From: Marsupella aquatica
Taxonomy: Eukaryota; Plantae; Marchantiophyta
DNA: 64,000 nt
Direction of reading: 5' to 3'
NCBI GenBank assembly: GCA_973895155.1
Contig: OZ316896.1
Coordinates: forward strand, 7,199,078 to 7,263,077
Made by a program: the position numbers and the translations under genes. Numbering within the stretch: position 1 is the stretch's first letter; every line of letters begins with the position of its first letter. The notes beneath the pieces were generated by a model that saw nothing but the letters and a program-made list of their open reading frames with translations, was not told the DNA's origin and searched no databases. Positions 7,908 through 57,789 of the stretch are shown piece by piece.

Positions 7908-9092
7908 TGTGATGCCTAGCCAGGAATCATTAGGCCAGTTAAAATAGTAAAATCAGGAGTGTACCCTAGGAAACACCTAAGTAGTATAGTAACAAAAACA
8001 GGGAAATATAAACAATTAAGGGTGACTATGGAACCCGAACCGAGGCCGAAAGTAAGGACGTCGGGGGAGGGAACACGATTAGGGCTAGGGCGCGCTAAGT
8101 ACCGGCGGCTATGGGTAACCAATGGGAAGGAAGACCAGCCAAGGGGGGGTAAGGACCGATCGCAAGGAATGGCGGCTCATTTGCAAGCACGAGCTGTCAC
8201 GTCGTAGGCTTCGGCCTTAACTCAGACTTCAGCTTAGACGGGCACATCCCTCGTAAATCTGAGGGTTTGGGCAGGAAGGGAAGCACGTAATGCACCTTAT
8301 TCTCGTAAACTAGCGCTAAGTGCGCATACTGCTAAATACAGACACCTCCTAGGTATGGTTTGTGTTCCGCCGCCGGAACGTACCTTAGTCGATAGCAAGA
8401 TCGACCCCGGCTTAAGGGCTTCTAAGCCTTCGTGCTGTCCGCCTTCGATCCGGATTCGATGATACAGGTCCTCAACCCGTGCTCGCAACCACTTACCCGC
8501 AGGCTGCACCCTGTGCACGTCTCGGGTAGTGCGTTCGGCCCGGCGCTGCCACCCATATACGAGAAACCCACACACATATGCGCACACATGCATACAATCT
8601 CGATTTACACGAAGGAAAAATGATGGGAAAGGATTTTACTACAAAGGGAACATATGCGTACACTTAGTTGACACGACAGCCCTGGAATGCACAGGTTCAA
8701 GGCCAAGAGTGCACACTACAACGGAGCCCGGCTCCGCACTCGCCCAGCGAGCTTAGTCCTACCCCCTCCCCTTGGTACTCTGTCATTCCCAGAGGTCGGG
8801 ACTCCCCGCATGTCCCGCGGATGTCCGACTCTGAAACTAAAACCCCCCCTTGCCTCTACCGAGGGGTGCACTAAATACTAAGAGCCAAGGAACGGGGCGT
8901 CCTCCTGCCGAAGATCCGCTGACCAAGGTCCTAACTAAGCTGACAGTCAGGCCGGAAAACGGCTGTGTCTTATTAGAAGATCCTAATCTACGCAGGCTGG
9001 ACAGCAGGGCAGCGCTGCTGTACCTAAGGCAGGTGCCTGTCCCAAGAGCCTGACTAAGCCAATCCTAATCCTAATCTATTCCTACTCCGCCG

Positions 9093-11748: not shown

Positions 11749-11848
11749 TCAGAGGAGATAGTAGTGGCGACCTAGAGAGAACGAGAGAGCTGGGGTCGAA
11801 GCTGGCGCGCGGACTGATGGACTGGTGCACTACAAAGGGTTGGCTCCC

Positions 11849-11856
11849 CTTTTATA
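11849..11856 (-). promoter_or_regulatory. Candidate TATA box upstream of the C LTR ORF
   Basis: TATAAAAG about 100 nt upstream of ATG 11748; conserved in C2 at 35779-35785. Confidence 0.5.
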
Positions 11857-14549: not shown

Positions 14550-15535
14550 AGGTTTACCTAAAGCTTGGATGACCAGAAGAGTGGTGCCTATCTTCAAGGC
14601 AGGCAACAAGGACGATGTGCACAACTACAAAACCATCATGGTAGGCAATACTTTTGCTAAAGTTTTGGGAGGACTACTTGAAGCCAGATTAAGCTCTTGG
14701 TTGGAGAGTGAGATGAAAAGGGCACCTTCACAAGCAGGTTTTAGGAGAGAATTCAGCACTATGGATCACATTCTCTGCTTGAGGGTGTTGTGTGAAAAGG
14801 CCAAATCTCCACATAAACCATTATTTTGCTTGTTTGTGGACTTCTCCAAGGCCTTTGACAAAGTTTCCCGATCCAAGCTTTGGGATAGGATGGTGGAGTT
14901 GGAAGTGCCTGAAGAGCTCAGGTTGGCTGTTTCTAAATTGTACCAAGAAGTGCGCATCAAACTTTCAAAGGAAACCTCTGAAGAAATCTGGAGCACTCTT
15001 GGGGTGATCCAAGGTTGTCCTCTCTCACCAACTCTCTTTGGCATCTTCATTGATCAGCTACACAACATTTTGGAGGAGCATGGTGGAGTGGGCACTCAAT
15101 TGGGTAGGTTTGTCCTCCAACTTCTTATATTTGCAGATGATGTGGTCCTACTTGCTCATGCTCAAGAAGCTTTGCAAAGACATCTCAATGCCTTGGAGGA
15201 GTTTTGTCAAGCAACAGGGATGGTAGTCAACCTCAAGAAGACCAAGTGTTTGGGCATTGGCACACGACAAAATCCAGAGCTCTACTTCCAAGGGAATCTG
15301 GTGGAATTTGTGAGGACCTACAAATACCTTGGGGTGGAGTTCTCTCAAAACTTGAGTTGGGCCTCATGTGTAAAATCTAGGGCTGCCAATGGGTACAGAG
15401 CTTTTTATGCATTCATGAACAAATGCAAAAGAGCTGGTCTACACACTTGGAGGTTAAGGAAACATCTCTTTGGAGCTTTGGTGAAACCAGTCATTCTTTA
15501 TGGAGCACCAATTTGGGGAGCAGGTGTGTCTAAAT
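14550..15535 (+). mobile_element. LINE copy 2, internal RT fragment
   Basis: Near-identical to 1967-2952; ORF 14569-15540. Confidence 0.93.
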
Positions 15536-18902: not shown

Positions 18903-18917
18903 TTAAGTGGGGGGCTA
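18903..18917 (+). other. Polypurine tract of B2
   Basis: ttaagtggggggcta before TGTGATGCC. Confidence 0.85.
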
Positions 18918-19027
18918 TGTGATGCCTAGCCAAGAATCACTAGGCCGGTTTACATGGTAAAAGCAGGAGTGTACCCTGGAAACACCTTAGTATAGTAACA
19001 AGACAAGGAAAATATAAACAATTAAGG

Positions 19028-22000: not shown

Positions 22001-22717
22001 GAGCTGGACAAGGAGCTAAGAGCAACCCAGGAGGAGAGGGCTACCTTAAAGAAAGAATTGGAGGAAGCCAAAAAGGAGCTGGAGGAGGCGCGCAAGGACC
22101 TGGACAAGACCCAGGAGGAGTTGGAGGAAATTACGAGGAAGATGGAGAACCTACAGCGGCGGGCCGACAACCAAACAGAGCGGCTGAAGAAACAAGCCGC
22201 AATATTTAAATGCTTGGCTTCATCAGGTCCAACTCCAATTGGGGCAACCCAGTTACGAGGGGTAGTATTGGCCAAAGGACAAGCCGAGACACTCACCCCG
22301 GTGCCGGAGGTAAGTGGCAAGGGGAAGGAACTGGCTGTCGAAATAGGGAAGAAGAAGAAGCGGAAACCTTCTAGGTCTGGGAGTTATACGGCTTCTCAAG
22401 CCATTATGACCGAGAAGATAAACCCGGCACCAACCTCCGGCATCGGCACGGCGGTGGATCCACCAGTCCTAGTAAGTGGGGATGGCAAGGCCGAGGCCGG
22501 GACAACCAGTAATGAAGCCGAGGTACCAGATCCTCCACTAGAACATGCCGGGGAGGCCGTGGCCGATGCTCAGGCCGAAGCCGAGGGTGGACCCAGTCAG
22601 GCCAATGAAGAGTTGACTCGGTCCGGGGCAGGTAATCTGTCAGAGGATGGACCAACGACAGTGGTTGCGGAGGAAGCGTTGGGAGTGTCCATTGAGGACC
22701 AGCCACCGGGGTCGTGA
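19028..22717 (+). pseudogene. Family B LTR-encoded protein (~1140 aa from MSNVN at 19295), three in-frame stops
   Basis: ORFs 19028-21058, 21317-21622 and 21623-22717 are all in one frame; heptad coiled coil in the C-terminal half. Confidence 0.88.
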
Positions 22718-23203
22718 CGGTGTAAGGGAGCCGTCCCTTTTAGGGAGGGCGGACGTGGAGGTAGGAGGCGTGAGTGGGCAGGGCGGACGCTAATCTCCAA
22801 GTTTAGACTAAGGATCAGGACCAGGAGACGGCCCTGACACTTAGATTAGTGGGATTGCGGATCCATGAGTGAGGGCAACACTTGTGCTCCTGCCTTGCTG
22901 TACATAGGTAGATTACAGTTAGGTAGATTATAGTAAGTAGATTAGGCTTACGCTGCAAGGAATCAGGCGGATCCACAACCAGGTTAAGTACCTGGGCTAC
23001 GGGGAGTTCAGGGCCTCTTCTTTAAACAAGTTTTTAGTTGCACCAGCAGGGCTGGGATCAAGTAGTAAGAGAAGCTCTCGGTTAGTTATACAGTGACCCT
23101 TGTGTATATTCATGTTTCCTCATGCCTAAGAATTGAATAGAGTTGGCCTCACTGCTTAGTTCGCAAAGCTTGTGTATGGGATGTACTGTTTGTATGGCAA
23201 GTG

Positions 23204-24228
23204 GTAATGGTAATGGTAATGGTAATGTATTATAAGCTTCGGGACCATGAAAGTCAAAGGAGCTGCCACAAAAAGTAAAGTACAATGCAATCAAAGAAAA
23301 GAGCAACCAAAAGAGATTGCTCAGAAGAGGACAACTATGTCCTCAAAGAAACTATGGACCTAGAGAGCAATGAAAGATTTTCCAAACCTATTCTCCTTTC
23401 CCTATCCACCGCAAAGATATATCTTCCAAGTTGCTGAGGGGGCAGACCAAACAATGCATACAAATCTTTCACCAAGATTTGAGATGCCATCCTAACCCCC
23501 TCATAAAACTTGCAAGCAATGAATACATGATATTCATTCTCGATACTAGAGCTATCACATAGTTGACAAACCCTCTTTTTCCTGTCAATATCCTTCCATC
23601 TCCCTTGTTCTACTTCAAGGTGGTGTGAGCTTAGTCTATATTGCAATAAGTTGTCTAAGTTGTACTGAGATAGTGCTAGATAAGTATTCTTGTTATCGAT
23701 ATTTCTTCATGGGGTTCACATCTCTCATGTAGTATTGTTGCCGTGGGCTAGGTTCATGCCAAATTTTGTGCAAAGCCTTTTGCTCAAGTTTTTCTCTTAG
23801 CTTGGTTGAGTGTGTTGGCCATTCATGTTCAGGAAAATCCCAAGCATGGGCCCACCTGCACACATCTGCATACCACCCTTTAGCTGAAGATGAGCGCAAG
23901 GCATGAAAAGGAAATCTGTTTTCCTCCAACTCTCTTACACGCATGATGTATTTGAGTGTGTGGAAGAGTGCCTCCACCTCCAAAGGAAACAAGCCTGCCT
24001 CTGCAAGTGTAAGTGTATATGGGGTTTGTGACTTGATCCCAAACTCCATCTCAAGAAATAGCTTTTGCAGCCCCTCAATCTGTTGCCACCCAGATTTAGA
24101 CACACCTGCTCCCCAAATTGGTGCTCCATAAAGAATGACTGGTTTCACCAAAGCTCCAAAGAGATGTTTCCTTAACCTCCAAGTGTGTAGACCAGCTCTT
24201 TTGCATTTGTTCATGAATGCATAAAAAG
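23204..24228 (-). mobile_element. LINE copy 4, 5'-truncated, inserted in the B2 LTR
   Basis: (GGTAAT)n tail at 23203-23226, TSD aagtg (23199-23203 and 24226-24230), empty site visible in the solo LTR at ~42310. Confidence 0.93.
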
Positions 24229-26983
24229 TGCATGGTATAACTCAGTCAGAAGGAGTCATTTTGCTATTTGTGTGTCGCATTAACTTGTGTGAAGAGTGCC
24301 CACATCAATGAAGGGAAGTAGCAAGGGAGTGAGAGTTGGATGTGTCGAGCTGAGAGAGGTCTTACCGGCTTAACCAAGCCAATTGGGGATCATTCCGGCG
24401 GCAGAATCCAAATATACCTAAAGAAAGCGAGGGGAAGACAAGGGAAGGCCTAGATTGGGCCGGCTACGTATCTCATGGCCTGATGAAGGATCTGTCTAAT
24501 ATATATGTGTAAAATGTTAATAGTAGTAGTAGAGGAGATTAGCAGCGTCCCATGCCGGTAAGCCACGGAAACGGCCTCGCCGAGGACAAAACCTGCGGGA
24601 ATTGGCTTGTGTCGGGGGGTTTCTTGGGTTTGGGGAGCCATGGGACGCACCACAGCTTGAAGGTTGTTTCTTGCGCTACATGCGTTGAGTAACCCGATCA
24701 AAGTAACCGTCGGTGGACGATATGGAGCATCCTGGTTTCAATGTCGATAACGTTGTGTGGCCCCAGAGGGAAGTGCCAGCGTCGGAGGAGCAGACCGATC
24801 AGACGGTCAACTTTAGGTCATCGACATCAATTGCAGACACCGAGAGTCGCCTGACCAAGACTTCCGACATAAGGAATCGTCTCTAACTGCCTGCGGACGA
24901 GGGTATGAGCTCGGGTGAACGAAACATTCCTTGGCTTCCTGATTCTCCTTCGAGGCCATTTCAGGAGAGATTCTCAATTCATTATCCAACTCCCGAACAT
25001 CCTTCATTGAATGTCTTCTGGGATGTGGAAATTCAGTCTGCCAAATTTCTTGGTCGTATCAATTTCTATGATAAAAACCTTCCTGAGTCTTCATTGCGCC
25101 CTTCGCGAAGGCTTCCAAGTGCACGGTATGTTGCAACTCGAACATTTGGCTTTTGACAAAAGCCAAAACACAAGAAGGCAAGGCTCAACGACGAATGTGA
25201 GTCTTCGTTTGATCCGAGATCATCCTAGGATCATTGTGGTCATGATCTTGGGTAGCGCCAGGCGCTGCTCATTTCATGGAGGAGAACCACATCCAGTTCG
25301 TAGTTTGGAATCGGAGGAGGTGCACTTGGTGCTTCGTTTTGGGGTTAGGTTAGGCTTGTGAATGGGTTCTTTCACCGTGGATTACTCCGTTAGAGTGAGG
25401 TTGACTACAGTTCGTAGGGCTCAACGACGGATTTGGGTCTTTCTCTGATCCGGAATTTTTGAATAGAATTGTGGTTAGACTCTTAGGCCTCCCGAAGATA
25501 CTTGTTTCGTTGATGCGATCTGTGATCCGGTGAATAATTTTGAATCGCTGGAGGTGGACTTTAGGCTCCTCATTTTGGAATTTTGTATTGTGCTTCATTA
25601 GTAGAAGCGTGTATACACAATGTTTTCGCTTTAGTAAAAATCATTTTGGCTTGAGTTTTGTTAACTGGTATCATTACATTTTTTCATTTTTGGGTAGCGC
25701 CTGGCACTATGATGTTTCATGGTTGTGTTTCATTACGGTATTCAGTTTTGGGTAGCGCCTGGCACTATGATGTTTTCACGTATGAGTCGATTGCTATGTT
25801 TGGGACCCTGGATGATTAAAAGTGAACATTGCTTTGGATTTAGAGAGTTTTTACCCATTGACTAGCCGGGTTATTCATGGAATATTCTCTTTGCACATGT
25901 TATTTTGGGATATATTGTTGATGTTTTGGTTGAAGTATTTTCCTGTTTCCTTTTTGCTATTTCCTGTTTGGATTTTCCTATTTCCTGGCACGGTGGTGAT
26001 ACCCGTGAAGGCAAGGTGCTAAGCTGGCAACACACACTAAGGACTTAGACTAGTAGAGGGCTGGTCGGGTCATGGGAAAGGGCCGGACACCCAGACATAC
26101 TTTGAGTTCTTAGGGCTTGAGTGAGAGCTTAGCTTGGGCCCAAGGCTAAATAAATGGAGTTTACTTCATGCACAATAGACACTTGGGGCACGAGATACGG
26201 CCCGACCCAAGTTAAAAATTGTTATTACGTAAAAAAAATGCATTTAAGAATTTTCAAACTGCATGGAAATTTGTTTTTTGGCTGATCAAGGGGGCCAAGC
26301 AACGACAGGTTTTGAGGGCCCAGGCGTGAGCACTGGGTCGGCCCAATCACAACGGGCTAAGTCACTCTGCCTACGGACACCTAACTAGAAAGTTATGGGC
26401 ATAGTCAATTATGGACATAGCGGGTTGGGATCCAGGTGGGGGGCCAAAATTTGGGGACCAAAGTAGATCCGAGGGTGGTAGATCTCTAGAAGCATATATG
26501 AGAGGACTGGTGTCTCCCTAGGGACTAGGGGCAAGCCGAAGTTGTGAGCCGCAACAGTCGCGTCAATAACTAAGGGGAAACATCAAATAAAAATGACGAT
26601 AACTTCCCAACGGGAAGTTTGTTGGAAGACTTCTTGGGTGCGTTGGAAAGCTCTCAAGGAGGACTACATCCTCTTGAGCTCAATTGGGTCTAGGGGTGCC
26701 ATAGATTCTTGGGGTTTGCAGGGGCTATCTCGCCCTCTAGCCAAATCTTGCCGAAATAGCAGCCAAGCCGCGTTTGTTTCCCAAGAGAGCTTGCATTGGG
26801 GAGACAAGGCCAAGTAGGCATGGAGGTTAAGTTCTAAGTGTACTTGGCCCTAGGCTATCAACTGAGTCAACATCATGAGTTGGTTGTTAGAGCCGAGATC
26901 CTTTTGGTCCCGACATGCTAGGACAAGCTTGGGACAAGCTTTAGGACAAGCTACGCTATTTGGGGCATGGCAATTGGTTGGTG

Positions 26984-32145: not shown

Positions 32146-35100
32146 TGTCACGTCGTCAGCCTTGGCCTTACTCCGGGCTTCGGCTTAAATAGGCACATCC
32201 TTTGTCAAAATGAGGTTTCGGGCAGGGAGGGAGGCACGGAATGCACCCAACTTACATAAAATAGCGCTAAGTGCGCCTATCGTCATATACGGACACCTCC
32301 TAGGTATGATTTGTGTTCCGCCACTGGAACGTACCTCAATCGATAGCAGGATTGACCCTGGCTTAAGGGCTTCTAAGCCTTCGTATTGTCCGCCTTTGAT
32401 CCGGATTTTGGTGGTATGGGTGCTCAACCCGGGCTCGCAACCACGTACACGCAAGCTGCACCCGTGCGCTACTTGGGTAGTGCGTTCGGCCAAGCGTTGG
32501 CACCTATACACGAGATTCACACACATACATACGCACAAGCATAAAATCTCAAGTTATACAAAGGAAATAACGGGAAGGGATTTTACTCCATAAGAGACAT
32601 ATGCGTACACTTAGTTGACCCGAATGCTCTGGAGTGAACAGGTCCGAGGCCGATGGTGTACACTACAATGGAGCCCGGCTCTGCACTCGCCCAACGAGCT
32701 TAGTCTTACACCCTCCCCTTGGTACTCTTCCACTCCCAGAGGTCGGGACTCCCCGCACATACCGCGAATGTCCGATACTGAGACTAAAAAAACCCCCTGC
32801 CTCTACCGAGGGGTGCACTAAATACTAAGGGCCGAGGAACGGAGTGTCCTCCCACCCGAATATTTGCTAACGTAGGTCCTAACTAATTTGACTGTCAGGC
32901 CAAAAAACGGCTATGTCTTATTAGAAGATCCTAACCTACACAGGCTGGACAGCATGGCGGTGCTGCTCTAACTAGGGCAGGTTCCTGTCCCCATAGCCCG
33001 ATTTAGCTATTCCTAACCCTTTTCTATTCCTACTCCGCCGCTAATGCCTGGCACGCTTGTAAGAGCCGCCTGAGTGGGAGCGGCCATCCCGCTGCTTATG
33101 AAGTCTATCGTTGTCCGCCTTGAGGAGCTGGACCTGGTCCAGCAGAGATTCGTTCTCTCGCTTTGCCGCATCCGTCTCCTCCGCTGCCTCTTGGCATGCC
33201 TCCTCCAGCTGCTGGGCATCGCTCGTCAGCTTGCCCGCCAGCTGGTCCTGCTTCTCGGCTTCGGTTTGGAGCCGCGCCACTTCGGCCTGTAGTGTGGCTA
33301 TCTCCGCAGTGTCTTGATGGGCCCGTTCTTCGGCCTCCTCCAGGTCTTTCTGCCAGATGACAATTTGATTCTTCAAACTGTCAATCTGGTTCCGGAGTCG
33401 TGCAATCTTGGCCTCGTTCCTAGCTTTGGCCTGTTCGGCTAGGGCGGTAAGGGCGTGCGCCTTTGCTAACAACTCATCGGCGGCTGCAACTTTGGGTCGT
33501 AGTTGCAGAAGCTCAGCCTCTTGAGCCGCAACTTTGTTCTTTAAGTATACGGACTCCACCCGGTACCGCTCTATCCTCTGAAGGGCCTCTGACTGGGCCC
33601 GACCTGCCTTTACTGCGGCAACCAACTCCTGATTGAAGAAACAGGCTACCTTCCGGGCCATGAACTCCTCGGTATCCCGGGCAATTTGATGAGAGAAATC
33701 TCCCAGAAGCCCGTTCAGAAATGTACCCGGTACGAAGAGTTCCGGGTGGTCCAGGTTGTGCCTGTCCGGAGTTGGGCACGGGCAGACGTCAACACGCGCG
33801 GGGGCCGGGGCAGTGACATCCAGCCCTGGGGATGTAGTGTTGGAAGGGGTTGGAGTGTCCTCTTGCAGCAATGTCCAGTTCTCCAGAATAGCCACCGGTG
33901 GGTCTTTGGGAGATCCGGGCTCGAGTAAGGCCTCCGCTATACCTACTTCTGTACTTGGCCCGACCTGTTGGATTGCATCTACGGTTGCGATAACCGACCC
34001 ATCCGGTACCTCCTCGGTCACAACTACAGCTACTTGTGGAGGTGGGGTGGGTGAAGTCTGCGTGTCCGCTGGACTTCGGGCCTCGGGTTGGGGCCATCTC
34101 TCCAAGGCCGGGAAAACCCACCTAGCTGGGACCAGCTTCATAACGTTGACACGGGGAAGGGTTCATCGATCAAACCGAGCGTACCACTTGAGAATGATCT
34201 CGATGTGGCTAGCGAAATACGCCTTCCCGCCAATGTATAGCGTCTTTCTTTGCCGCTCCATCTCTTCATGGAATTTTTTAGCAAAGTACGACGCCCACTT
34301 CCTAGGTCGATAGTTCTCGACCTGGATAACCTGGGCAGTGGAGATCTCCCCTCGGGGTTCCATCATGTGGAGGGCGTACCTTTGGAACTCCAATCGCTCA
34401 GCTATCTCGGGGATGAGGCAGGTCCTCATCACGAACCTGTTGTCCACTACTCCCTCTGAGGGAAAACTCGAGGATTGGTACTTGGCTCCCTTGCCCCCGG
34501 GAGCCCGTGATTCAACTCGATGGTCACCTTCGGGTAACCCGAAAATCATCTTGAGCCGTTCTTCTGTGAGGGACATATTCCTTCCCCGCAGCCGAGTATG
34601 TTGATGTGCGTCATCATAATTCTTGACGAATTCCGTCATGTCCTCCCCGTAGTACCTGCAAGTGTTCCAGGGGAGAGAGGCGAGGTGCTCGAATCCCTGA
34701 GTCTTCAGGTACACCGCATATTTGGGATGGAGGATGTTTTTATGCACGTTTTCCCCCATGCGGTGCATTGTCACTTTGGCCGCGGCTACCGTGGCCAATG
34801 GTAACCCGGATGCAGCGGCGGGTTCCTTCCTCTTCTTCCCCCGTGACTGGCTCGGGGAGGGTGACACCTCCCCATCCTCTCGATCGGGCATAGGTAGTGC
34901 TACCGCCGTTAGTATTGGGCCCGGGGCGGCCACAGTCACCGTGTTGTCTGCTGGAGCCGCTCCTTGGGTCCGAGCATGGGGAGGGGACAATGTAGTGTCG
35001 GCCCCCTGAGTGTTTGCTCCTCTGGGCCGCCTGAGCAAGGGTGGGGTAGCCTCGTCGTCGTCGCTAAGGTCCACAACGTTGATGACGGAGCGTACTTGTA

Positions 35101-36144
35101 CTGGCGGGGCGATTGGCGGTGGGGGTTGGCTAGGCTGAGGCTGAGACTGAAGCTGAGCCTGAGTCTGCATTGGTGCGGGTACGGGTATGGGGTTGACTGG
35201 GCCGGCGCCGGCGGTTGAGGGTCTAGTTCCCATGAAGCTCTGCAGGTGCTGGTAGAAGTTCTCTCAAGCAAGTGCAGACGGCCTTGTTGAACGGGTAGTG
35301 CTGGACTCGCTATTGATGATAGCCCGAACCTGAGCAGGGATGTGGTCGAAGTGATGTCGTTGCAAGTCGATCGTACCCGGGATATTGAAGACCTGGTCCG
35401 AAAACCGAAGCAATGCTTCCCAGAAACCGATATATTTGTCTCCATTGAAGAAGTACCCAGATACCTCTGGTGGTCGGTAAAGCTCGCTCTGAGACGGGTA
35501 GTCAAAGTTAAGGATATAGTGGTGTCATCCTGCTAGGCGGATGGCTCTCTCGTACTCGTGTTTGATTTCGTATCAGCGCGGGTTGGCGTGTTTCAATGAG
35601 TCGGCCAAGTGTCTTCCGGTAGATAGGAACTGCGTCTAGAATCGAATGGCCGAACTGGAGAGGATCATGTGCGACATTCAGAGGAGATAGCAGTGGTGAC
35701 TAAGAGCGAACGAGAGAGCTGGGGTCGAAGCTGGCGCGTGGACTGATGGACTGGTGCACTACAAAGGGTCGGCTCCCTTTTTATACTTTGGGGGCTTGTC
35801 GATCACCCGACATCTCCTCGTTGCCTATAGGTTGAACCGTTCATGCTTGTAGTGTACCGGCCACTCCGCCAGTCTGAGTCAGCGCGTGTCAGTGGCCGCT
35901 TCCCTAAGTTCGTTATACGGACCCGAGGGAGGGGCCCCTCCACGTTCGCAACCCGGGCATGCGAATGGCGACACGCCGCCAGTCCGAACATGAATTCCCC
36001 TTATTGACTAATGATTTTCTACTCATAATGGTTAACTAAATACTGTTGTTATGCTAATAACGGCGGCCTAAGATACCCCTAACGCGCATGCTAAGCGCGG
36101 TCTAGACTGAATTACTCATTACTCGCCATACCGGCGGCATCACA
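32146..36144 (-). mobile_element. Family C gene-containing solo LTR, copy C2
   Basis: TGTCACGTCG...CGGCATCACA, TSD ctttt/cgttt (one mismatch), colinear with C1 end to end. Confidence 0.85.
33041..35677 (-). pseudogene. Family C LTR-encoded protein, copy C2 (878 codons, one frame, a few nonsense mutations)
   Basis: 34163-35233 and 33041-34141 are in frame across a CGA>TGA stop; the upstream part matches 11311-11748. Confidence 0.85.
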
Positions 36145-39100: not shown

Positions 39101-41893
39101 TTCCAGCCTCTCTAGTCTCATACCTTCATAAACTGGAATCTTGGTTGCACTAGCCGAGTAGGTTGACTTGATTTCTTCCTTGTTATCCGCAGACTGTTCC
39201 TTTGCCGGTCTATTTGGTTTTGAATTGGTGGTCGGCTTCCCTTCCTGACTCGGCTCTGGGTTGTTTTTGTGCATCTTCTCCATCCTTGCTTCTTGGGTTT
39301 CAGGCCGTTGTGCTCTTCCGGCTTCTAGTAGGGCCTCAATTTGTTCTGCCCTCGTGATCGGCTTGTACGCCGATCCCTTGGTATTTAATTTACTGCCGAT
39401 GGTAGATGGCGTTGTGGATTCTGCCAGCTCTGCCACAACGCCTGAGGAAAATCCATTGTTTTCGGTGCCACTCCCCACTTAGCCGTTTCATCCAACTGGT
39501 CCACCTCTTGTGCTTCCTCTGGAATTGAAGCTAGAAAGGTGTTTCTTCTTCACATTCTTCCAAGTCATCCTCCATAGGTTCTTGCCATAGTCCGCTGGGG
39601 GGTACTTCTGGTCCGAAGACACTTTCTTCGGTTAGGTCAGTGAGGCATTCTAGCCAACGTACCTCATTGGCTGACTCCAATCCACTGTCGTACCCGTCTA
39701 CCTCCCTGATGCTTCTCCTATGGTCATCCTTGGTGTCCCAGGATACCGTGATAGAGGGGGTCCCAAAAGTGAACTCCTTCTTACCCCAATCCTCTATTAC
39801 CTTGGCTAGGTACAGCCATGGCCTGCCAATCAATAGTCGGAACGACGTAGGGTTTACCGGCTTCATCACTACATAGTTAATGCTAAAGAAGATACCTCCT
39901 ATCTCTGTTTTGATGCCGGTTAACACTCCCGTGGGAATGACCTGATACCCATTTGCCATGTTCAACACTCTTCCAGTCATCTCCGGTGTTAGACCCCACC
40001 CTTTTGTTGTGGAATCAATCATAATACATACCCCTCATCCTCCATTGATGGGCACCCATAGTAATATTTCTCCTTGAATCATTAATGGTAATGCTGGGGC
40101 TCCTTGATCTTCTTCTATCATCAACACATTGGATCTGGTTGCTACCTTGGGTAATCTTGGCTTGCCGAGGATGGCCTTCCTTAACTATTTCCGAAAGTAC
40201 GGGCTATTTTTCAACAGTTGACCTACTATTGCCGAGACTCTAGATTCTAGTACATCTTTAGCCACGTCATAGGGGACTATCGGCTTCTCTTCTGGCGGTG
40301 TCTCCATATTGGCTTCGGCCTGTTTTTTCACGCTAATTTCCATAGCCTTTGGATCCTCCTAAGCAAACAATGCTTTTGCTCGTTTCACATCCTTGGCTAT
40401 GGCTTTGGTATTCTCCAGGGTTTCTAATTCTCGCAATTGTTCTTTAACACTAGCCATAATAGAGGGGTAGAACAACTTAGGGTGATCTCGATTGAAGTCG
40501 CTGTCCTATGAAGGATTGGGCTCATTGGTGGGCTCATGGCTTACCTGCATTGCTGGCGCCTTTCCTTCTCCTTCCGTTGATGTTGACGAAGAGTCGATCT
40601 TCTCTTCTTTAACCTTCCCTTTATTTTTGGCCAGCCCATCCCACCTTTCCTTCCTTCTGGTGGATCGAGTAGAGACTTGGTAGCAATTTATGATCCAAAT
40701 CCTCTTCTGAGAATGTTGATAGGGCCTCGGCCTCATCATCAGATGGTCCGTTTGCCATCTGAGTTCAATATGGTTGATTTGAACTCCTCCTGGGGTAGTT
40801 CCTGGCGGCAAGACCTTGACTGGCAAGAGTTTATGATTTGCGGCTAGTCCTGCTAACCAAGTAGGACATTGTCCTAGCATGTGACCCTCCTATCGGCATC
40901 CCATACATAGCTGAGCTGGTTGTCCATCACCTTGTTTGCGGGCATTCGGGCATTCTCTAGCAAAATGGCCAGGTTGACCACAATTATAGCATGCCGCAAA
41001 TCTTTGTACATTCGGCCTAGGAGGTACTGACGGATTCTGAATAATCCGAGGATACATCTCTCCCGGATTGTTCCTTAATCCTGACCAGAGAGATGCAGGT
41101 TGGTTGGATAGGTCTCGTGCTCCAGTCTCACTGATGCCAAAAACACTATCAGCGGCATCCCCTAGAAAGTATTCTACTTCTCCTTGACACGGTCTGATCT
41201 CAGCTATATGCCGAACATGACTAGTAGTGAGTTTAGGACATGCACCTTTATGGTGTCCGGTTTTATAACATAAGGCACACCATACAAAGCTATCTTCCAG
41301 TACTACTTTCTTCTTTGGCTTTACCTCTGCTATTATAGCCTTAAGTTGATCGGTAAGAGCCACAATGTTATCTGGCATTTTAGCCTCTAGCTTGACTTTG
41401 AACTTCCCCCTCCTTCTGCCCTTCTTTTTCCTAGATTTCTCTTCTTTAGAACTAGAAGATGACTCACTCTTGCTACCTCCACTATCCGAGCTTGAGTTAT
41501 CACTTCTTGACTTCTTAGAATGTTTCTTTTTCTTATCTTTTTTCTTATGGGGTGATCCTTCCTCCGATGAGGAACTCTCAGATTTGAGCTATTTCTTTCG
41601 GCTTGTGATATCTGCATTAATATACAATTGAATATCTCTAATTGCCTCGGCTAAAGTCTCTGGGTTCTCCTTCCTAATTGCAAAGCTTATCTTTTGTGGC
41701 AAAGCATTCACCAACCATTGAAGTTGCATACCTTCAGATGCATTGGTCTTTGTACATCTTACCAGCTTTTGGAAGCGTTGCAAGAACTTCCTGAAGGATT
41801 TGTTCTCCTTGAACCAAAGTCGTCCCAACTTTAACACTGCTAGCTCTGAGGTTCCAATGGGTCAAAACTCCTTGACAAATAGTGTTTTGAAGG

Positions 41894-44800
41894 TGTGGTG
41901 CGTCCCATGGCTCCCTAAACCCAAGAAACCCCCCAGCTCAAGCCGATTCCCGCAGGTTTTGCGCTTGGCAAGGCCGTTTCCGCAGCTTAGCGGCATGGGA
42001 CGCTGCTAACCTTCTACTACTACTATTAACACTTTACACACATATACTGGACAGATCCTTCATCGGGTCATGAGATACGTAGCCGGCCTAATCTAGGCCT
42101 TCCCTTGTCTTCCCCTCTGTCTTGTTAGGTATATTTGGATTCCGCCGCCGGAATGATCCCCAATAGGCTTGGTTAAGCCGCTAAGACCTCTCTCAGCTCG
42201 ACACATCCAACTCTCACTTGCTACTTCCCTTCATTGATGTGGGCACTCTTCACACAAGTTAATGCGACACACAAATAGCAAAATGACTCCTCTGACTGAG
42301 TCATACCATGCACTTGCCATACAAACAGTACATCTCATACACAAGCTCTGTGAACTAAGCCGTGAGGCCAACTCTATTCAGCTCTTAGGCATGAGGAAAC
42401 ATGAATATACACAAGGGTCACTGTATGACTAACCGAGAGCTTCTCTTACTACTTGATCCCAGCCCGGCTGGTGCAAACTAAAAACTTGCTAAAGAAGAGG
42501 CCCTGAGCTCCCCGCTGCCCAGGTACTTATCCTGGTAGTGGATCCGCCTAATTCTTTGCAGCGTAAGCCTAATCTACCTAACAGTAATCTACTTGCCCGG
42601 ATCTACCTATGTACAGCAAGGCAGGAGCACAAGTGTTGCTCCTACCAATGGAACCGCAATCCCACTAAGCTAAGTGTCAGGGCCGCTCCTGGTCCTGATC
42701 CTAATCCTAAGCTTGGAGATCAGCGCCCGCCCTGCCCACTCACGCCTCCTCCCTCCACGTTCGCCCTTCCTAAAAGGAACGGCGCCCTTGCACCATCACG
42801 ACACCGGTGGTGGATCCTCAATGGACGCCCCCAACGCTTCCTCCTCAGCCACTGCCGTAGGTCCGTTTTCTGACAGATTACCTGGCCTTGACTGAGTCAA
42901 CTCTCCATCGGCCTGACTGGGTCCACCATCGGTGTCGGCATCGGCTCGGGAATCATTATCGGCTACGGCCTCAGCCTCGGCTACGGTCTCCCCGGCCTGC
43001 TCAAGAGGCGGATCTGGGATACCGGCCTCATTACTGAGTAGTTCTGCTTGGGCCGCACCATCCCCACCTTTGATGATAGCGGGATCTATTGCCGTGTTCA
43101 TGCCGGAGGTTGGTGCTGGGTCTACCTCCTTGGTCACCACGGCCTGTGGAGTCGGATTACTCCTTGACCCTGAAGGTTTCCGCTTCTTCTTCTTTTCTGG
43201 TTCGGCAGCTGGTCCCTTCCCCTTCCCACTTACTTCCGGCACTGGTGCAGGTGGCGCGGCTTTTTCTTCGGCCAGTACCACTCCTGGTAACTTGGTTGCC
43301 CCAATTGGAGTTGGGCCTGATGAAGACAAGCACTTAAATACTGCGGCTTGTTTCTTCAGCCGCTCCGTTTGGTTGTCGGCCCGCCGCTGGAGGTTCTCCA
43401 TCTTCCTCGTGATTTCCTCCAACTCCTCCTGGGTCTCATCCAGGTCCTTGCGCGCCTCCTCTAGTTCCTTCTGGGCTTCCTCCCGTTCTTTCTTCAAGGT
43501 AGCCCTCTCCTCCCGGGTTGCTCTTAGCTCTTTGTCGAGTTCTGCAATGATGACAGACTCCATCTGATTCATCTTGGCATAAGTCTGATCGAGCATCTCG
43601 TCCTTCTCCCTTAGGTCGGCCTTGAAGCTGGCCATCAGGGACGCAAGCTCCTGCTGCAGCGCCATAATCCCTTGATAGGATTTTCCTAACTCGGCCTCCT
43701 TCTGCTCAAGGGCTCCGCGGATTTTCTCGAGCTCCCCTTTCAACGCCCATTCCTTTCTTTGGGTCTCCGCCATGGCCCGGCTATTGGCTGTTATGTGGGC
43801 CTCCTCTGCATTCCTCAGCTCTTGCTTCCACTTCTCCCTCTCTTTGATCGTATCGGCCAACTCTCCCTGCGTCTGAGTCAGTTTATCCTTGATATTCTGA
43901 TTATCAGCCTGCGCGGTGTCCAACTGCCCCTGCATGATGTTCAGCTCATGCCGTTTAATCCGCAGTTCATCTTGGGCTTTCTTGGCCGCCCTTAGATCTT
44001 CAATCTCGGCTTCCATCCTCCTAAGCCGCCGAATGACCTCGTCCTTCTTGCTTCTCTCTAAAGCCACCGCTTCTTCTAATTGGTGCTTCTCCAACTGCTC
44101 CCTATGGAAAAAGGGTCCTACCTCCAACTCCTCTCCAAAGATGCCGAGCGCAAGTTCCCCACACATCTCACCATACTCCATGGCTCTATTCTTAGCGTAG
44201 GTGGAGTAAGTAGAAGTGATCGGCATCGCCCATCGCGGCCTCTGCTCCCAAGCCGTCTTGCGGATCTCTTCAATCATGGCTAGAGGTTTGCTTCCTTTTT
44301 CGGCTAGCCACCTGATGTCCTCCGGCCAATCTCCTCCTGGTAAATCCTTTTCCCTAGCCAGGGCTGCCTCCTCTTTTTGCCTGATTCGCTCCTGAAATTC
44401 CTGCGCCGTCTGTTTTATGCCGTCAAAGCTCGGGGGAGCAACATCTGGTGGGGGAGACTCAGGGCTACTCTGCTGGTTGGGGTCCCCTCGTACTACCCTT
44501 GGAAGTGTGGGGACAAACCGGCCACAGGTCCTTACTCCTGGAACATGATGGTCTGACCCATAGCCGGAGTTATCATGGCTGAAGTCCTCCACTGCCTCCT
44601 CTACTTCTTGGACGTCCGGCTTCTCCCTCTCCTCTTCGTCGGTAGGAGCTTCAGGCAATTCTGCCTCAGATTCAGAGCTTGAGACTCCCACATACATTCG
44701 AACTCCTGGCTTGGATTCCGGCCTGATTCTCTCCTTGTCTCTAGCAAAGGGTTTTTCTCTTGTAAGCCGGTGTAAGCCTACCTCTGGAGTAGTGTCCTGC

Positions 44801-46552
44801 ATTGTTGTCGTTGCCGTTGTCGTTGCCAATGCCGATCTCTTTTCTTTCTCCAGTAGTTTCAGCAGACTCTGCATGCCTGGTTTCTGCATCGGCAAGTCCT
44901 CCTTCCTTGGTCTAAACACCTGCTCGATCGTAGGGCTAACAGGTGGTTGAGGCTTCTCTGCTATCGGCCTCGGTGCTGGAGCTTCCTCGGGTGCCCTTAC
45001 CTGCAAGGGAAGTACTGGGGCAAAAGTCTAACCTCTGGCATACCGGCACAACAGCGGCATGTGATAGCCAAGCCGCGACACGCTCCCCATGCCGATTACT
45101 TGCTGCTCCTCTTTTAAGATCTTCTTCAATTGGTTGAGGAGGTACCCGTTGTAGTCCCGGCTTGGGTCTGGCCTCTCTGCCAGATAGACCTGTGCCTTGC
45201 CGATCTCTGCCCTCGGCAAGTTACAATGCATGGTCACCCTCAAGAAGTCGATCATCTCTCCTATGTGCGGGTTGGTGCAGGTGTTCCGGAAGAAGCCATT
45301 CTTCATTGATGGCCCGGGGAACGACCGGAACTCCTTGTCAGGCAAGGTCTTCCTGGTATCAACTTTGGTCTTATTGCCTATCGGCAAGCCAAACACCTCG
45401 GCAATCACCTTGGGAGTAAGATAGAAATCCTTCCCATATATCCTCGTGCAATTGGTCTCGGGTTCCCATGACCCCACGAATTCTAATAGGTCTGAATCCG
45501 GCACCTTCGGCTTCAGCCATGGTAATCTTACAAAGGCCTCTAAGCCGGATCCGACCATAAAGCCTTGGTACTTCTTGGTCTGCATGGCCGTAAAGCATGC
45601 ATCCTCCTCCCGTGCAAAATGTAGTTGCACCTCTACTGGTAGGGTTGCCGCCCAGCCCTTCCAGGTGTCATCCCTGGTTGGAATGGCCTTGATGGGATCA
45701 ACCTCCTCCTCTTCGGCTTCTCCCTGCCTCCTGCTCTGCTGCTCGGCTGGCTTCTTTGGTGCCGCCGACCTCGTTCTTTTTGCCGGGGTGGCTTCATCGT
45801 TGACGGCTCCCTTCCTCTTCATCTCTGCTGCCGTGGAGGTTTCTCCTAACACCGTTGCCTGGGTCCACCTTTCCGTGCTACCCTTCAATTCCCAGTGTAT
45901 GTCGTTGCAGTTCTTGATGGCCTCTTGGATGCCGACGACGCTGTCTTTGCAAAACAGAAGATCGTCGAGCTGATTGGAAGTAGGAGTCCACAAGAACTCG
46001 TCCTTGATGAGTTCACCTCCTAAGAAAGCCGTCTTCTGCAGCTCCCACAATCGAGCGAGCTCCTGCCGTTCTCGAGCTGCCCTTTCTGATTCCTTGTCCT
46101 CGTAAGTCTTGATGTACTCAGTTGCCCGTTCGAACAGGCATCCCCAGAAATGTGCCGCTTGATTGACGTTGCTCATACCCTCCTTAGGTCGATCGTCGGT
46201 ATCTATTCTCTCCCCGAGTGCTTGCCTAAGCAGCTGATAGTAGTTGGCCTCCCGTAGTTGTCTGCCTAGTTCGTGCTCGCAAATGAGCCACCATCTCCTA
46301 CAAGCGCTCCTTACCCCTCTCCTCTTCCGGTCCTTCCTCCCGTTGATCCTTCCTAGCTGCCGACGCTTAGCGCGCCCTAACCCTAATCGAGTTTTCACCC
46401 CCAGCGTCCTTACCTCCGGCCTCGGCCCGGGTTCCATAGTTGTCCCTAATTGTTTATATTTTCCTTGTTTTGTCCCTATACTAAGGTGTTTCTAGGGTGC
46501 CTTCTTGCTTTACCCACTTAACTGGCCGAGTGATTCCTGTCTAGGCATCACA
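41894..46552 (-). mobile_element. Family B gene-containing solo LTR (4659 bp) inserted in the gag of its own family
   Basis: TG...CA ends, perfect TSD gaagg (41889-41893 and 46553-46557); B3 gag is continuous when it is removed. Confidence 0.95.
42796..46437 (-). pseudogene. Family B LTR-encoded protein, nearly intact (single in-frame TAG at 45030-45028)
   Basis: ORFs 45028-46437 and 42796-45006 are in the same frame. Confidence 0.9.
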
Positions 46553-47046
46553 GAAGGAATGCCAGATGGCTTGATCTTCCACATTCAATGCTCTATACCA
46601 AGGCCTAGCCTCACCCTTGAACAGGTCGGGAAGAATTTTCATCTTAATGGCTGATTCTCCATTTGCTGCAGCGGTTCCTTCAAAGTCATCCAACCATTTG
46701 TCTGGATCCTCATCTCCTCTCCCATGAAATGCCTTGTAATGAATGCGCAACCGTTGGCACAGTCTGGTTCCTGGCCTCTCTTCTGGCCGTGCCTCCGGTT
46801 CCCCCATGTCGGTTGGGGACTCAATTCTCCTTACCGACTCTTCTTCTGGTATTTCTTCTTCGATGCCACTTTTAGTTACGAAGCTACTAGCTCTTTCTGC
46901 CCCTCTCAGTCACTGTGTATTATGCCACCCGGCAAGCTGTTGCAGACGAGCTCTCTCCCGTTGAATCGCTCTTTCCTCCCTTGGCGTAGGTTCAGTCATT
47001 ACCTACGCTTCCTTCCTAACTTCATATCTCATGGCTTAAGAAATGC

Positions 47047-48070: not shown

Positions 48071-49500
48071 GTCCGGATCCTCATCTCCTCTTCCATGAAA
48101 GGCCTTATAATGAATACGCGACCGTTGGCTCCGTTGGTCCCTGGCCTCTCATCTGGCCGTGCCTCTGGTTCCCCCATGTTGGTTGGGGACTCACTTCTCC
48201 TTACCGACCCTTCTTCTGGTATATCTTCTTCGATGCCACTTTCAGTTACGGAGCTACTAGCTCTTTCTGCCCCTCTCAGTTGCTGTGTATCATGCCACCC
48301 GGCAAGCTGCTGCAGACGAGCTCTCTCCCGTTCAATCGCTCTTTCCTCTCTCGGCGTAGGTTCAGTCATTACCCATGCTTCCTTCCTAACTTCATATCTC
48401 ATGGCTTAAGAAATGCCCCCTCCATCTAGCGCCAAAAATGTGGTGCGTCCCATGGCTCCCCAAACCCAAGAAACCCCCCAGCACAAGCCGATTCCCGCAG
48501 GTTTTGTCCTCGGTGAGGCCATTTCCGCAGCTTAGCGGCATGGGATGCTGCAAATCTCCTCTACTACTACTATTAACATTTTACACACATATACTGGACA
48601 GATCCTTCATCGGGTCATGAGATACTTAGTCGGCCTATTCTAGGCCCTCCCTTGTATTCCTCTCCTGGTCTCCCATTAGGTATGTTTGGATTCTGCCGCC
48701 GGAATGATCCCCAATTGGCTTGGTTAAGCCGCTAAGACCTCTCTCAGCTCAACACATCCATCTCTCACTCCCTTGCTACTTCCCTTCATTGATGTGGGCA
48801 CTCTTCACACAAGTTAATGCGACACACAGATAGCAAAATGACTCCTTCTGACTGAGTTATACCATCACTTGCCATACAAACAGTACATCTCATACACAAG
48901 CTCTACGAACTAAGCCGTGAGGCCAACTCTATTCAGTTCTTAGGCATGAGGAAACATGAATATACACAAGGGTCACTGTATAACTAACCGAGAGCTTCTC
49001 TTACTACTAGATCCCAACCCTGCTGGTGCAACTAAAAACTTGTTTAAAGAAGAGGCCCTGAACTCCCCGCAGCCCAGGTACTTATCCAAGTTGTGGATCC
49101 GCCTGATTCCTTGCAGCGTAAGCCTAATCTACTTACTATAATCTACCTAACTGTAATCTCCCTATGTACAGCGAGGCAGGAGCACAAGTGTCGCCCTCAC
49201 TCGTGGATCCGCAATCCCACTGATCTAAGTGTCAGGGTCATATCCTGGTCCTGATCCTTAGTCTAAACTTGGAGATCAGCGCCCGCCCTGCCCACTCACG
49301 CCTCCTACCTCCACGTCTACCCTCCCTAAAAGGGACGGCTCCCTTACACCGTCACGACCCTGGTGGCTGGTCCTCAATGGACGCCCCCAACGCTTCCTCC
49401 GCAACCACTGTCGTTGGTCCGTCCTCTGACAGATTACCTGCCCCGGACCGAGTTAACTCTTCATTGGCCTGACTGGGTCCACCCTCGGCTTTGGCCTCAG
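48071..49500 (-). mobile_element. Copy B4: truncated 5' LTR (48439-49500), PBS (48417-48434) and start of gag (ATG 48402)
   Basis: PBS TGGCGCTAGATGGAGGGG; this 5' LTR still includes the C-terminal end of the LTR ORF at ~49352-49500. Confidence 0.9.
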
Positions 49501-54591: not shown

Positions 54592-57500
54592 TGTCAAACA
54601 CTTGCCAAGGAGCTTAAGCGGCTTTTCTCCCCAAAAGACTACCTAATACCTGCTCCATGTCATACCAGGGTCACAAAGGATTGACAAAACTTCTGAAGTG
54701 TGCTTACAATGTCCAATCACTCCATACATAAGTAGTTTCAACTCTCCACTTCTAGAGAGGTAGTCCCCTTGACTACTTTTGTACTCACCCCTTCCCCTCT
54801 CCTCTACTCCAAGGATCAGCAAGGGGGATCTCCGCTCCAAGCTGTCACCTTAGAGTAGATTCTCACACAAACACCCAAGAACCCAAAGTACTTTCCTCTT
54901 CAAGCTTAAGTCTCCTCAAGACCCTCAAAGTAGTGTTACCCCTCAACCTTGCCCCCCTGGCCTTGGTTTGGGTCCACACATCCCCTTTGAGCCCTAGAGA
55001 AGGCTCCTCTATCTAAGGACTCTTCCTCTTGTTCTTACTTCTTGTTAACACCACACACCAAGCAAAGTACTTTCCACCCTCAAGCTATAATCCTCTCTAA
55101 GTCTCAAAGTAATGCTATACCTTAACCTTGCCTCCTTGGCCTTGGTTTTGTACTAGCACATCCCCTTCAAGCTTAGACCAAGATTATACCATAGCATGGA
55201 CTCTTCTCTTGCTCTCATATACTTCAAATGCACTCACACTTAATGGTCACAATGAAGATTGGTAAGTCTCCTTTTATTGCATCACCTTTACAACAAAAGT
55301 TCACTACACATTCTCCACACTAAGCATGGACCACCTCTCCTTTCTCAAGCTTAGCCCTACCTTGGCAAGGTAGAGATTTCACTTAAGAGATGAGACTCCC
55401 GGTCCCTAACAAATGAAAACTTCCTCCTTATATACTATCTCCTTCCACATCACACCAAGCTTGACCTGGGGTCCAACTATACCTCCCCCAAGTCCTCCTA
55501 ACACACAAAGTCCAACTCTATAGTTCATAGCCCACCCTACTACTTGCTATTTTGCCTCCTTCCAAGCCCTGGAATATGCCACACATGAGTGGTATGCTTT
55601 GACTTCCAAACCTACTCCCACTTATGGTCCTCCTCACCAGCTTACCAACCCACTTGAAATCTCGCAAAAAGAGTGAGTGAGTCTCAAGTTGTGCCTAGTC
55701 AAAGTTGGCCTTATTTTACTTGTAACCCCTTTACTACCCTAAGTAAACTACCCCCTATATTTACTTTTCTTAACTTGATGGCCTTACACCTTTGGCCAAA
55801 GGTAAGTACCCTTCTCTAGAGCCTAACTCAAGTGGTATGGGTGCAAGAAAGGTCAGCCCCTAAATCTGGTATTCATTCCCCTATGCCGACTTTGGTTTGC
55901 AAGTTGTCGGGACTCCCTCGTGGCCTCGGTTAAAAATATATTTGAGTGATTACTTTTCTGGGGTTCCACCTTCACCAGGGGGTGCCTTATCTTCCCCTAA
56001 CTCAGCACAAAAAAATTTGGGCCCCAACGGATACCTCTAGCCAAAGTTATGCCCATTCTCCCAAGGCCTGTTTTTGGTGTAAAGCGGGTGTAAGCGGCGG
56101 CCCGATTACACTTACCTTACATGCCCCTTATGGGGATTCCACGTGTCATGAGGGGAGAGCACTCTCATTATACTCATGTTTCTTATGAAGAAATTGTAAG
56201 GACAGCAATGTTTGCAGCCATTTCTCTCTCGTGAATTCAATCTAAAACCACAGCATTCTCTATTGGATTCTTTCTTGTGCAGCAGTCCAGCTGATCAGCC
56301 GCCAGCCCCTCAATTTCACAGCCACCATAGCTCACAGCCAGCCTAGTCAATTTCGCAGCTAGCCCACCTCTTCAATTTTGCCGCTAGCAACACAGTCAAT
56401 TTCGCAGCTAGCAGCACAGTCACATCAGCGCATTTACAGCACAACAACAGCAGATTTGAAGCACAGCAGCAGCAACCATAGCTTGATTCCTTCTCAGTCA
56501 AGCAGGTCTCTCTTCTCAATTTCGTAGCTGCCCACCTTTGCAATTTCGCAGCTAGCAGCAGCATCATTCAATTCAGCAGCATCAAGGCAGCAGCCAGCCA
56601 ATTCTCATGAGCATCTCGTGCCTGATTAGTAGGAGCACCTCTAATCTAGTGTGCAGCTGTCATAGCAGCAAGCAGCCTTCCCAATTCAAAGCCAGCAGCG
56701 ATCCTAATTTGCAGCCATAGCTCTTTTCCTTCTCAGCAGCCATAGCTTCTTCAATCAGCAACAGCCCTTGCTTCTTCAATCAGCAGCAGCCATTTCAATT
56801 CAGCCGCCCTTCCTTCAATTCAGCCGCCCTTCCTTCAATTCAGCCGCCCTTGTGCTCAATTGATTCCTCAAGTAATCATGCAGCACCTTTGGACAGCCTC
56901 CCGGTGCTTGACGTCCTCACCAGCCTCGTGCTTGCTCCTCCTTGCCTCGTGCTCGCTCCTCCTTGCCTCGTGCTCGCCGCGTGATCGTCGCCCACGCGGT
57001 TTACACTTAGAAAAAAATACATTTTTTTTTGGAAAAACAGCATTTTGGGGCGATTTTGGACCCCCCTCCAAAACTCACACATAAGTCCAAAAGGACTTCT
57101 GAGTAGCTCCACTGATTCTATGGACATAGGACTATGTCCGGGTTTACTAAGATATAAACAAAACCCTATAACAACTTTTCTAAAATTAGGCAAAGAGGGT
57201 CAAGTCTTTATGTCTTCCAAAATTCTTCTCAACTTTGAGATGCTCCCAAAAAGTAACCAAGTGTGACAAAGTTGTCCCACAAGTTTCTAGGGATAGAGGG
57301 GACCATACTTAACCCACTTCCAAACTTGGAACCCCTACATTTACCCATCAGCTATTTTTCCCGGGACCCGCTATTTGGTAACTTTGATTTTTGCCAAAAT
57401 ACTTATAACTCCTAGGTTAAGACCCCACTTGACTTCATACTTTTTCAGGGTTCCCTAGGGACCTCCCAGCACCCATGGGAGAAATATCAGCCAAAAATAA

Positions 57501-57774
57501 GATGTCCGGTGTCGGGTCATTTTTCGGTCCCGACTTAGTCGCCTATTATAACTAAGGACGGACTAGTTTCCTGCCCCTCCTATAGTAACTTGCTTACCCC
57601 TAGATAACTTTGCATAACTAAATTCCCTCTTACCTCTACTAAGCTTCCCTTCTTACTTAAGTGCCCTAAACCTAGCTACTCTGATAGCACTAAAACTTTT
57701 TCCCTAACTATTTCCTCTTCTAAACGAAAGAATGTCATGTTTCTCTACACTAGCTGACACTGAGCCATCCCACA
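54592..57774 (-). repeat. Family D 3' LTR (3183 bp, no long ORF)
   Basis: TG...CA ends shared with both D solo LTRs. Confidence 0.92.
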
Positions 57775-57789
57775 TAGCCCCCTACTTAA
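57775..57789 (-). other. Polypurine tract of D
   Basis: ttaagtagggggcta on the minus strand directly before the LTR TGTGGG. Confidence 0.85.

Follow-up and report, generated by a model that had tools for sequence, protein, structure and literature searches.

A long terminal repeat that carries a selected gene in a liverwort Ty3/gypsy family, and its possible anti-silencing role

We analysed a stretch of 64,000 nucleotides from the liverwort Marsupella aquatica (contig OZ316896.1, positions 7,199,078 to 7,263,077 of the forward strand), hereafter the window, whose own numbering is used throughout. The window holds copies B1 to B4 of a Ty3/gypsy retrotransposon, family B, and at 41894-46552 a 4.7-kb unit that we identify with high confidence as a solo long terminal repeat (LTR) of this family, holding a real gene under selection. 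The features of the unit and its borders are as follows.

41894..46552, minus strand: family B solo LTR with TG...CA ends, 4,659 bp, defined by junctions, target-site duplication (TSD) and gag homology
41889..41893, plus strand: TSD GAAGG, left copy
46553..46557, plus strand: TSD GAAGG, right copy
46453..46458, minus strand: TATA box, candidate promoter of the LTR gene, at LTR position 95, with location and context shared by 3/3 B copies
42796..46176, minus strand: LTR-borne gene, 1,126 codons with one internal stop
45028..45030, minus strand: the sole internal stop of this gene, read through in B1 and B2
41894..42795, minus strand: the LTR's non-coding final 902 bp, with 91-92% identity among copies

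Read on the minus strand, the unit starts with TGTGATGCC and ends with CACCACA. The TG...CA ends and the perfect GAAGG duplication reported in an earlier note on this DNA are both present, and a 5/5 TSD match would occur by chance with a probability of about 0.001. The insertion site is the gag of B3: gag homology ends at 46553 and restarts at 41891, and homology to the polyprotein of the sister family C covers residues 90-178 on one side of the unit and 178-964 on the other. The empty site is represented in public sequencing data, since contigs of runs X3 and X4 carry an uninterrupted gag in which both flanks are directly joined. In B1 (7908) and B2 (18918) the 5' end of the unit stands directly after the polypurine tract (PPT), and in B3 (47069) and B4 (48439) its 3' end stands directly before the primer binding site (PBS). 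These are the junctions that the earlier note had described; together with the TSD and the clean insertion into gag they bear out its claim that the unit is the LTR itself. A search of the unit for terminal repeats, a PBS or a PPT of its own, which by the note would have refuted its claim, found no inner terminal repeats, no PBS and no second PPT motif, nor any long inner repeats or gag/pol content. A terminal-repeat retrotransposon in miniature (TRIM), a large retrotransposon derivative (LARD) or any other independent element was ruled out, as the unit is without its own terminal repeats, PBS and PPT. One contig of run X8 runs from the LTR 5' end into unrelated DNA, and contig joints show both family B LTR ends nested within other LTRs.

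The other family B copies of the window contribute these features.

7908..14550, plus strand: B1 3' LTR, with unit A1 inserted in it and cut by a long interspersed nuclear element (LINE)
18903..18917, plus strand: B2 PPT
18918..24654, plus strand: B2 complete 3' LTR with the gene; a LINE piece (~1 kb) is inserted at ~23204-24225
47047-47064, minus strand: B3 PBS
48417..48434, minus strand: B4 PBS, which we take to match tRNA-Arg
48439..49500, minus strand: B4 5' LTR, last 1,062 bp with the gene's last 48 codons, cut by other DNA at 49500

The whole unit is present after pol in B2, where it is ~85% identical to 41894-46552 across most of its length. In B1 (7893-7919) and B2 (18903-18929) alike, the integrase/pol frame crosses the PPT and reaches its stop after 12 nt of the 3' LTR, so that the internal region of ~6.2 kb has no room for an extra open reading frame (ORF). 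On the other side of the element, the B4 5' LTR keeps the C-terminus of the ORF, as the earlier note had seen, with the last 48 codons free of stops. For the B3 5' LTR and a fragment at 29566, similarity is confined to the last 200-330 bp of the LTR; a short LTR for B3 was ruled out, since X4 contigs extend B3-type and B4-type ends into the long LTR.

Contigs of 8 public runs were aligned to the window and their depth, a sum over contigs and not a copy number, was compared between regions. Ratios were taken from the four deep runs (X1-X4); X5, X6, X8 and X12, which are thin or dominated by other pol families, were omitted. In X1, X2, X3 and X4 the ORF exceeded gag-pol in median depth by factors of 3.6, 2.8, 4.2 and 5.3, and 37 of the 40 ORF bins (11/11, 8/11, 9/9 and 9/9) lay above the highest internal bin. 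The non-coding LTR end reached 0.84 and 0.97 of the median ORF depth in one contig set. Our identification of an LTR with a real gene is thus based on the junctions, the TSD, the lack of inner repeats, PBS and PPT, this depth step at the LTR borders, and selection on the coding sequence.

A single sense frame is open from 46491 to 42796 (1,231 codons, one stop), and the chance of one stop at most across 1,126 codons is about 3e-22. The dN/dS ratio of the ORF is 0.26 against B2 (1,202 codons) and 0.23 against B1 (804 codons), compared with 0.85-1.41 in the shifted sense frames and 0.15-0.17 in pol, taken as a control; the long aligned blocks of the gene all keep one frame. Judged by these substitutions, the gene is under purifying selection. 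The 48 codons of B4 give a dN/dS of 0.75 and are too few to show selection. Constraint is uneven along the long frame: codons 19-105 are neutral (0.89 and 0.78), codons 106-225 are constrained (0.17 and 0.12), and the core domain described below reaches 0.10 and 0.09. When five homologous N-termini were combined into a profile, its alignment began precisely at the second ATG (46176). Because of this profile start and of the neutral codons, we place the gene start at 46176 and rule out the first ATG (46437). The earlier note had counted an ORF of ~1200 codons and ~78% of the LTR, with a single stop; the single stop is as described, but the gene comes down to 1,126 codons or 72.6% of the LTR, the figure of 78% having been counted from 46437.

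A TATA box lies upstream of the ORF in 3/3 B copies and in 2/2 copies of family A, a second family with a homologous gene. Such a box is expected by chance 0.77 times per 4.7-kb LTR, so one per LTR is within chance. In B it stands 21 nt before the first ATG, which would therefore fall just upstream of the transcript start, in agreement with the neutrality of codons 19-105. A 22-codon upstream ORF (46226-46294, minus strand) lies between the TATA box and the gene start; the solo LTR and B2 have it in identical form, and B1 shares its ATG. It is plausible from the sequence that a solo LTR can retain a working gene with a candidate TATA box upstream; the present copy has the internal stop.

The encoded protein was divided into the following regions.

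45859..46176, minus strand: N-terminal domain, ~105 residues, common to family A and four homologues, no family or fold assigned
45031..45693, minus strand: core domain, 221 residues, predicted PMD/DUF1985/VANC-like fold, dN/dS 0.10
43342..44094, minus strand: coiled-coil-like region, dN/dS 0.15, with weak coiled-coil Pfam matches below cut-off

From the N-terminus, the order is N-terminal domain, bipartite basic cluster, core, coiled-coil-like region, basic cluster and variable tail. The protein has no membrane helix (highest 19-residue hydropathy 0.82), and on this ground an ENV-like role was ruled out. Modelling the N-terminal 382 residues from a single sequence gave nothing usable (predicted local distance difference test, pLDDT, 36); the model of the core, built from 57 sequences, reached a pLDDT of 92. 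Among 48,161 solved chains, VANC21 bound to DNA (PDB 9lnk) was the sole one at Z>=2, with Z 8.0 over 199 aligned residues, a root mean square deviation of 4.1 and 10% identity; a Z of 8 stands at the caution line of the structure-comparison tool. This match stands alone and spans the domain. Protein language-model leads for the B and A genes both pointed to DUF1985 and PMD clusters (0.88-0.89, under the 0.9 line). In Pfam the core has no family, and Transposase_32 appears below cut-off in 3/57 members of the core family. A profile search gave 69 core homologues, and the 10 examined comprise 4 Calypogeia fissa proteins, 5 unnamed proteins and 1 'hypothetical' cluster. Structure search of a viral library gave an unnamed best match (E 0.011), and word-based searches, restricted to long proteins and hence weak, found nothing. 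From the predicted model we consider with moderate confidence that the core shares the PMD/DUF1985/VANC superfamily fold. In the accounts consulted, VANC carries DUF1985, binds a short motif and strips methylation from cognate elements (PMC5735166), it structurally resembles the PMD protein MAIN (PMC13547354), and MAIN-family proteins counter Polycomb silencing at DNA motifs (bioRxiv 2024.09.27.615353).

The layout of family B was compared with that of the neighbouring families.

8195..12218, minus strand: family A unit A1, solo-LTR-like, TG...CA ends, 4,024 bp, TSD 5/5, with a broken homologous gene from 11748 to 9093
32146..36144, minus strand: family A unit A2, TG...CA ends, 3,999 bp, TSD 4/5, with a homologous gene holding several stops
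54592..57774, minus strand: family C 3' LTR, 3.2 kb, PPT position as in B, no ORF above 112 codons, used as internal control

The A and B genes share 24-27% identity in the core, have the same orientation and are followed in both families by ~900 bp after the stop; dN/dS in A is 0.26. As the family A pol is outside the window, A1 and A2 are regarded as LTRs by analogy with B. An intact relative of 906 residues (P0191) exists. A third homologue, family D, is broken and lies at 1729-311 (minus strand, unit 257-1729), cut by a LINE and the window edge. Family C (54592-63934, minus strand) has an intact, stop-free gag-pol frame of 2,039 codons, an extreme depletion of CpG, short repeat arrays in its LTR, and a spacer of ~20 nt between LTR end and PBS.

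B and C are 74% identical in the reverse transcriptase-ribonuclease H (RT-RH) region. The order RT-RH-integrase without chromodomain (Pfam on the C pol and the B RT-RH; integrase end of B inspected) is that of a Ty3/gypsy non-chromovirus. No additional RNase H of the Tat type was matched by Pfam, and the ~100 residues between RH and integrase in C are colinear in B. Among named proteins, the closest RT relatives are those of the liverwort Calypogeia fissa (65%). A 28-row tree was built from B, C and 26 chosen out of 120 matches; in it, B, C and the Calypogeia proteins form their own clade (100/99) apart from seed-plant relatives, whose rows are unlabelled, and the RT-RH does not nest among these Athila-like relatives.

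The two families also differ in CpG content. The RT-RH of B holds 39 CpG in 460 codons, versus 3 in 457 for C at equal GC content and 9 in 651 for the LINE; Fisher's test gives p 4e-9, though codons are not independent trials. The family A gene stands at 0.83 of expectation, and the A units have the highest CpG content among the retroelements of the window. CpG retention fits a long-term low CG methylation in the gene-carrying families. As to possible target motifs, TTAGG is enriched in 5/7 non-coding parts; this observation was made post hoc, the unbiased top-6-mer test is not significant, and it serves as a lead only. On the sense strand, repeated TTAGG/ATTAGG copies flank the gene in B and A1 and follow the stop in D; in B4 and A2 the pattern is not clear.

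These data can be brought together in one explanation, a U3-borne, PMD/VANC-like gene with its own promoter and likely an anti-silencing function, to which as a whole we give an even chance. Transcription of the genomic RNA would begin within the final 900 bp of the 5' LTR and continue across gag-pol and the PPT to the end of the gene. Primed at the PPT beside pol, plus-strand synthesis would then copy the gene into both LTRs, so that by the way reverse transcription makes LTRs each element would have two gene copies. After LTR-LTR recombination, TATA box, ORF and 3' region would all persist in the solo LTR, and the gene would probably be transcribed from its own promoter near the LTR 5' end. 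Placement in U3 with two promoters, as in mouse mammary tumour virus (MMTV), is the arrangement that we somewhat favour; gag-pol, too, requires a promoter, and we infer the last 902 bp to be the seat of the genomic promoter, R and U5. In family C a TATA box at 843 nt and AATAAA at 687 nt from the LTR end indicate a long U3. The protein is predicted to be nuclear, PMD/VANC-like and DNA-binding. By analogy with VANC it might oligomerise through the coiled coil, bind short element motifs and lower silencing marks in trans, a function that we rate just short of an even chance, and solo LTRs with an intact ORF would provide this protein for the rest of the family. The full scenario, in which a liverwort gypsy LTR holds a VANC-like anti-silencing gene and solo-LTR formation, by which the host chiefly deletes these elements, scatters through the genome self-sufficient gene copies that hold the family free of methylation in trans, is tentative, and we would sooner doubt it than assume it.

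Several observations weigh against this account. All five LTR copies that hold a large part of the gene are broken, and no element with two complete LTRs was found in the window or in the scans of metagenome and viral contigs. In the other contig set the non-coding 3' end exceeds most of the ORF in depth; X5 and X6 show no excess of LTR over pol depth, and coverage in X8 and X12 is too thin for a verdict. The VANC21 likeness, at its tool's caution line, has no counterpart in Foldseek searches of the PDB for the core, a second look included, or in PDB sequence searches, which returned coiled-coil noise or nothing and no match to a solved structure; the Pfam families PF10536 (PMD) and PF09331 (DUF1985) match 0/57 members of the core family. 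The CpG contrast was obtained with a single sister family and a single LINE, and CpG is likewise abundant (0.64-0.89) at 50-54 kb, in a DNA-transposon-like stretch where no such gene was found. A search of the B LTR brought up no VANC-like tandem target array. The sole canonical TATA box is upstream of the ORF, with none in the final 900 bp, an arrangement that a short U3 would explain as well.

This last point belongs to an alternative in which the gene lies in the LTR but within R or U5, and one promoter at LTR position 95 yields an RNA with the gene first and gag-pol second, much like the 5' PMD-coiled-coil ORF of Ogre, except that the gene is upstream of the PBS. The TATA box is the sole TATAWA in each of 5 LTR copies, the first 376 bp of the LTR are constrained, and for Tat lineage IV the part of PMC4408406 consulted describes a sense PMD-coiled-coil ORF on the 5' side. 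Such an element would however need a minus-strand strong-stop DNA of 4.5 kb and some means of translating gag-pol downstream of an ORF of 3.4 kb. Were splicing the solution, many LTRs without the ORF should exist, yet joints inside the LTR, among those listed, reach a depth of ~400 at most; the LTR of the sister family C, moreover, has a long U3. We consider the R/U5 arrangement unlikely. A stronger competitor leaves the LTR-borne PMD-like protein in place and gives it another role, in nuclear import, packaging, integration targeting or transcriptional activation, the CpG contrast having some other cause. A shared fold does not show function, those of the Gypsy PMD and TRP28 ORFs are given as unknown in the relevant parts of PMC4408406 and PMC11963269, a second CpG-rich element is present in the window, and the dense nesting of the window's elements is what targeting would give. 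Characterised relatives of the fold nevertheless act on chromatin silencing through DNA motifs, according to the cited accounts (PMC5735166; bioRxiv 2024.09.27.615353), and the 13-fold CpG gap separates close relatives in homologous codons. Another role is quite possible, if somewhat below an even chance.

It is very improbable that the 4.7-kb unit is an independent element with a gene, or that it arose through a rare upstream PPT in elements with a usual LTR formed by its last 0.3-0.9 kb. The absence of a whole element would be in line with it, as would the B3 5' LTR and the 29566 fragment, with their match to just the last 200-330 bp, and the deeper 3' end in one contig set. Against it, the unit is free of inner repeats, PBS and PPT, the B4 5' LTR extends into the ORF, X4 contigs carry B3-type and B4-type ends into the long LTR, the non-coding end has 0.84 and 0.97 of the ORF depth in one contig set, and A1 and A2 show the same layout with their own TSDs.

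We compared the LTR-borne gene with known systems as described in the consulted parts of the cited papers. The PMD-coiled-coil extra ORFs of Tat/Ogre elements (PMC4408406, PMC6317226, PMC7264820, PMC5418596) share with it a selected gypsy accessory gene, a PMD-like domain followed by a coiled coil, and the lack of a membrane helix. They are located in the internal region, upstream of gag or in the gap between pol and 3' LTR, whereas the B gene is inside the LTR and the internal region of B is gag-pol only. An older survey saw no extra ORFs in the earliest Tat lineages and Gypsy PMD clades are reported from angiosperms; the host of B is likely a liverwort and its protein has no Pfam PMD match. 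VANC21 of the VANDAL21 Mutator-like transposons (PMC5735166, PMC13547354) resembles the B protein in predicted core fold and as a transposon-encoded accessory protein with a coiled coil; the B gene differs in being on a retrotransposon LTR and not on a DNA transposon, in its extra N-terminal domain, and in that a search for a tandem target array gave none; identity between the two is 10%. The MMTV sag/naf ORF (PMC9412291) is likewise whole within the LTR, two per element, with its own U3 promoter (U3 and promoter being inferred for B), but belongs to an animal retrovirus and encodes an unrelated protein. Ogre (LTR 1.9-6.5 kb) and Retrosat2 (>3.2 kb) combine very long LTRs, frequent solo LTRs and an extra ORF (PMC6431247, PMC3485330); their extra ORFs are outside the LTR, while the B LTR is 73% coding. 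In the non-chromoviruses Phygy and Selgy (PMC6317226), compared by description only, the polyprotein also fills nearly the whole internal region, with no extra RNase H and no chromodomain, but they are described as short and without extra ORFs.

More generally, the consulted parts of PMC7264820, PMC6317226, PMC4408406, PMC11963269, PMC3485330, PMC6431247 and PMC5418596 place plant extra ORFs in the internal region, as the earlier note had stated for Athila, Ogre and Retand. Such a layout is not mentioned in the parts consulted of the liverwort-element papers (PMC12885004, PMC10508981), the centromere atlas and PMC12844716. Full-text searches of the open literature, judged by their listings except for the papers named here, turned up no plant retrotransposon with a gene inside its LTR, and Repbase, GyDB or REXdb supplements could hold a prior case. 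New here are also the second family (A) with the same layout and the sister family C with its 3.2-kb non-coding LTR. By a working rule, LTRs, and solo LTRs with them, do not code for proteins; the layout breaks this rule. Counts of solo LTRs are interpreted as element removal, and LTR-borne ORFs may be annotated as host genes, a risk illustrated by the several homologues that are Calypogeia fissa proteins. The function of PMD-type extra ORFs in plant gypsy elements is a long-open question, and the finding is relevant to how PMD/VANC proteins arose outside flowering plants. If true, the explanation proposed above would describe the first retrotransposon anti-silencing system of the VANC fold, in a plant lineage far from the VANC-bearing eudicots. 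With two gene-carrying families beside a close sister without the gene, and a 13-fold CpG difference, the anti-silencing idea is directly testable.

Protein searches of metagenome and viral contigs gave no related locus. A search for the PPT motif gave 11 metagenome loci, none of which had pol or an LTR-gene homologue by tblastn, and one of which matched the family C PPT. The 11 contigs with the PPT/LTR-start motif (L001-L011) have no pol nearby and belong mostly to one other repeat family. The window itself is a stack of nested insertions, in which a C-like solo LTR (32092-38528, TSD 4/5) sits in the B3 pol and contains A2. At 49501-54613, a CpG-rich element, possibly a DNA transposon, cuts the B4 LTR; its frame at 52487-53014 bears a Cys/His motif, presumably SWIM-like.

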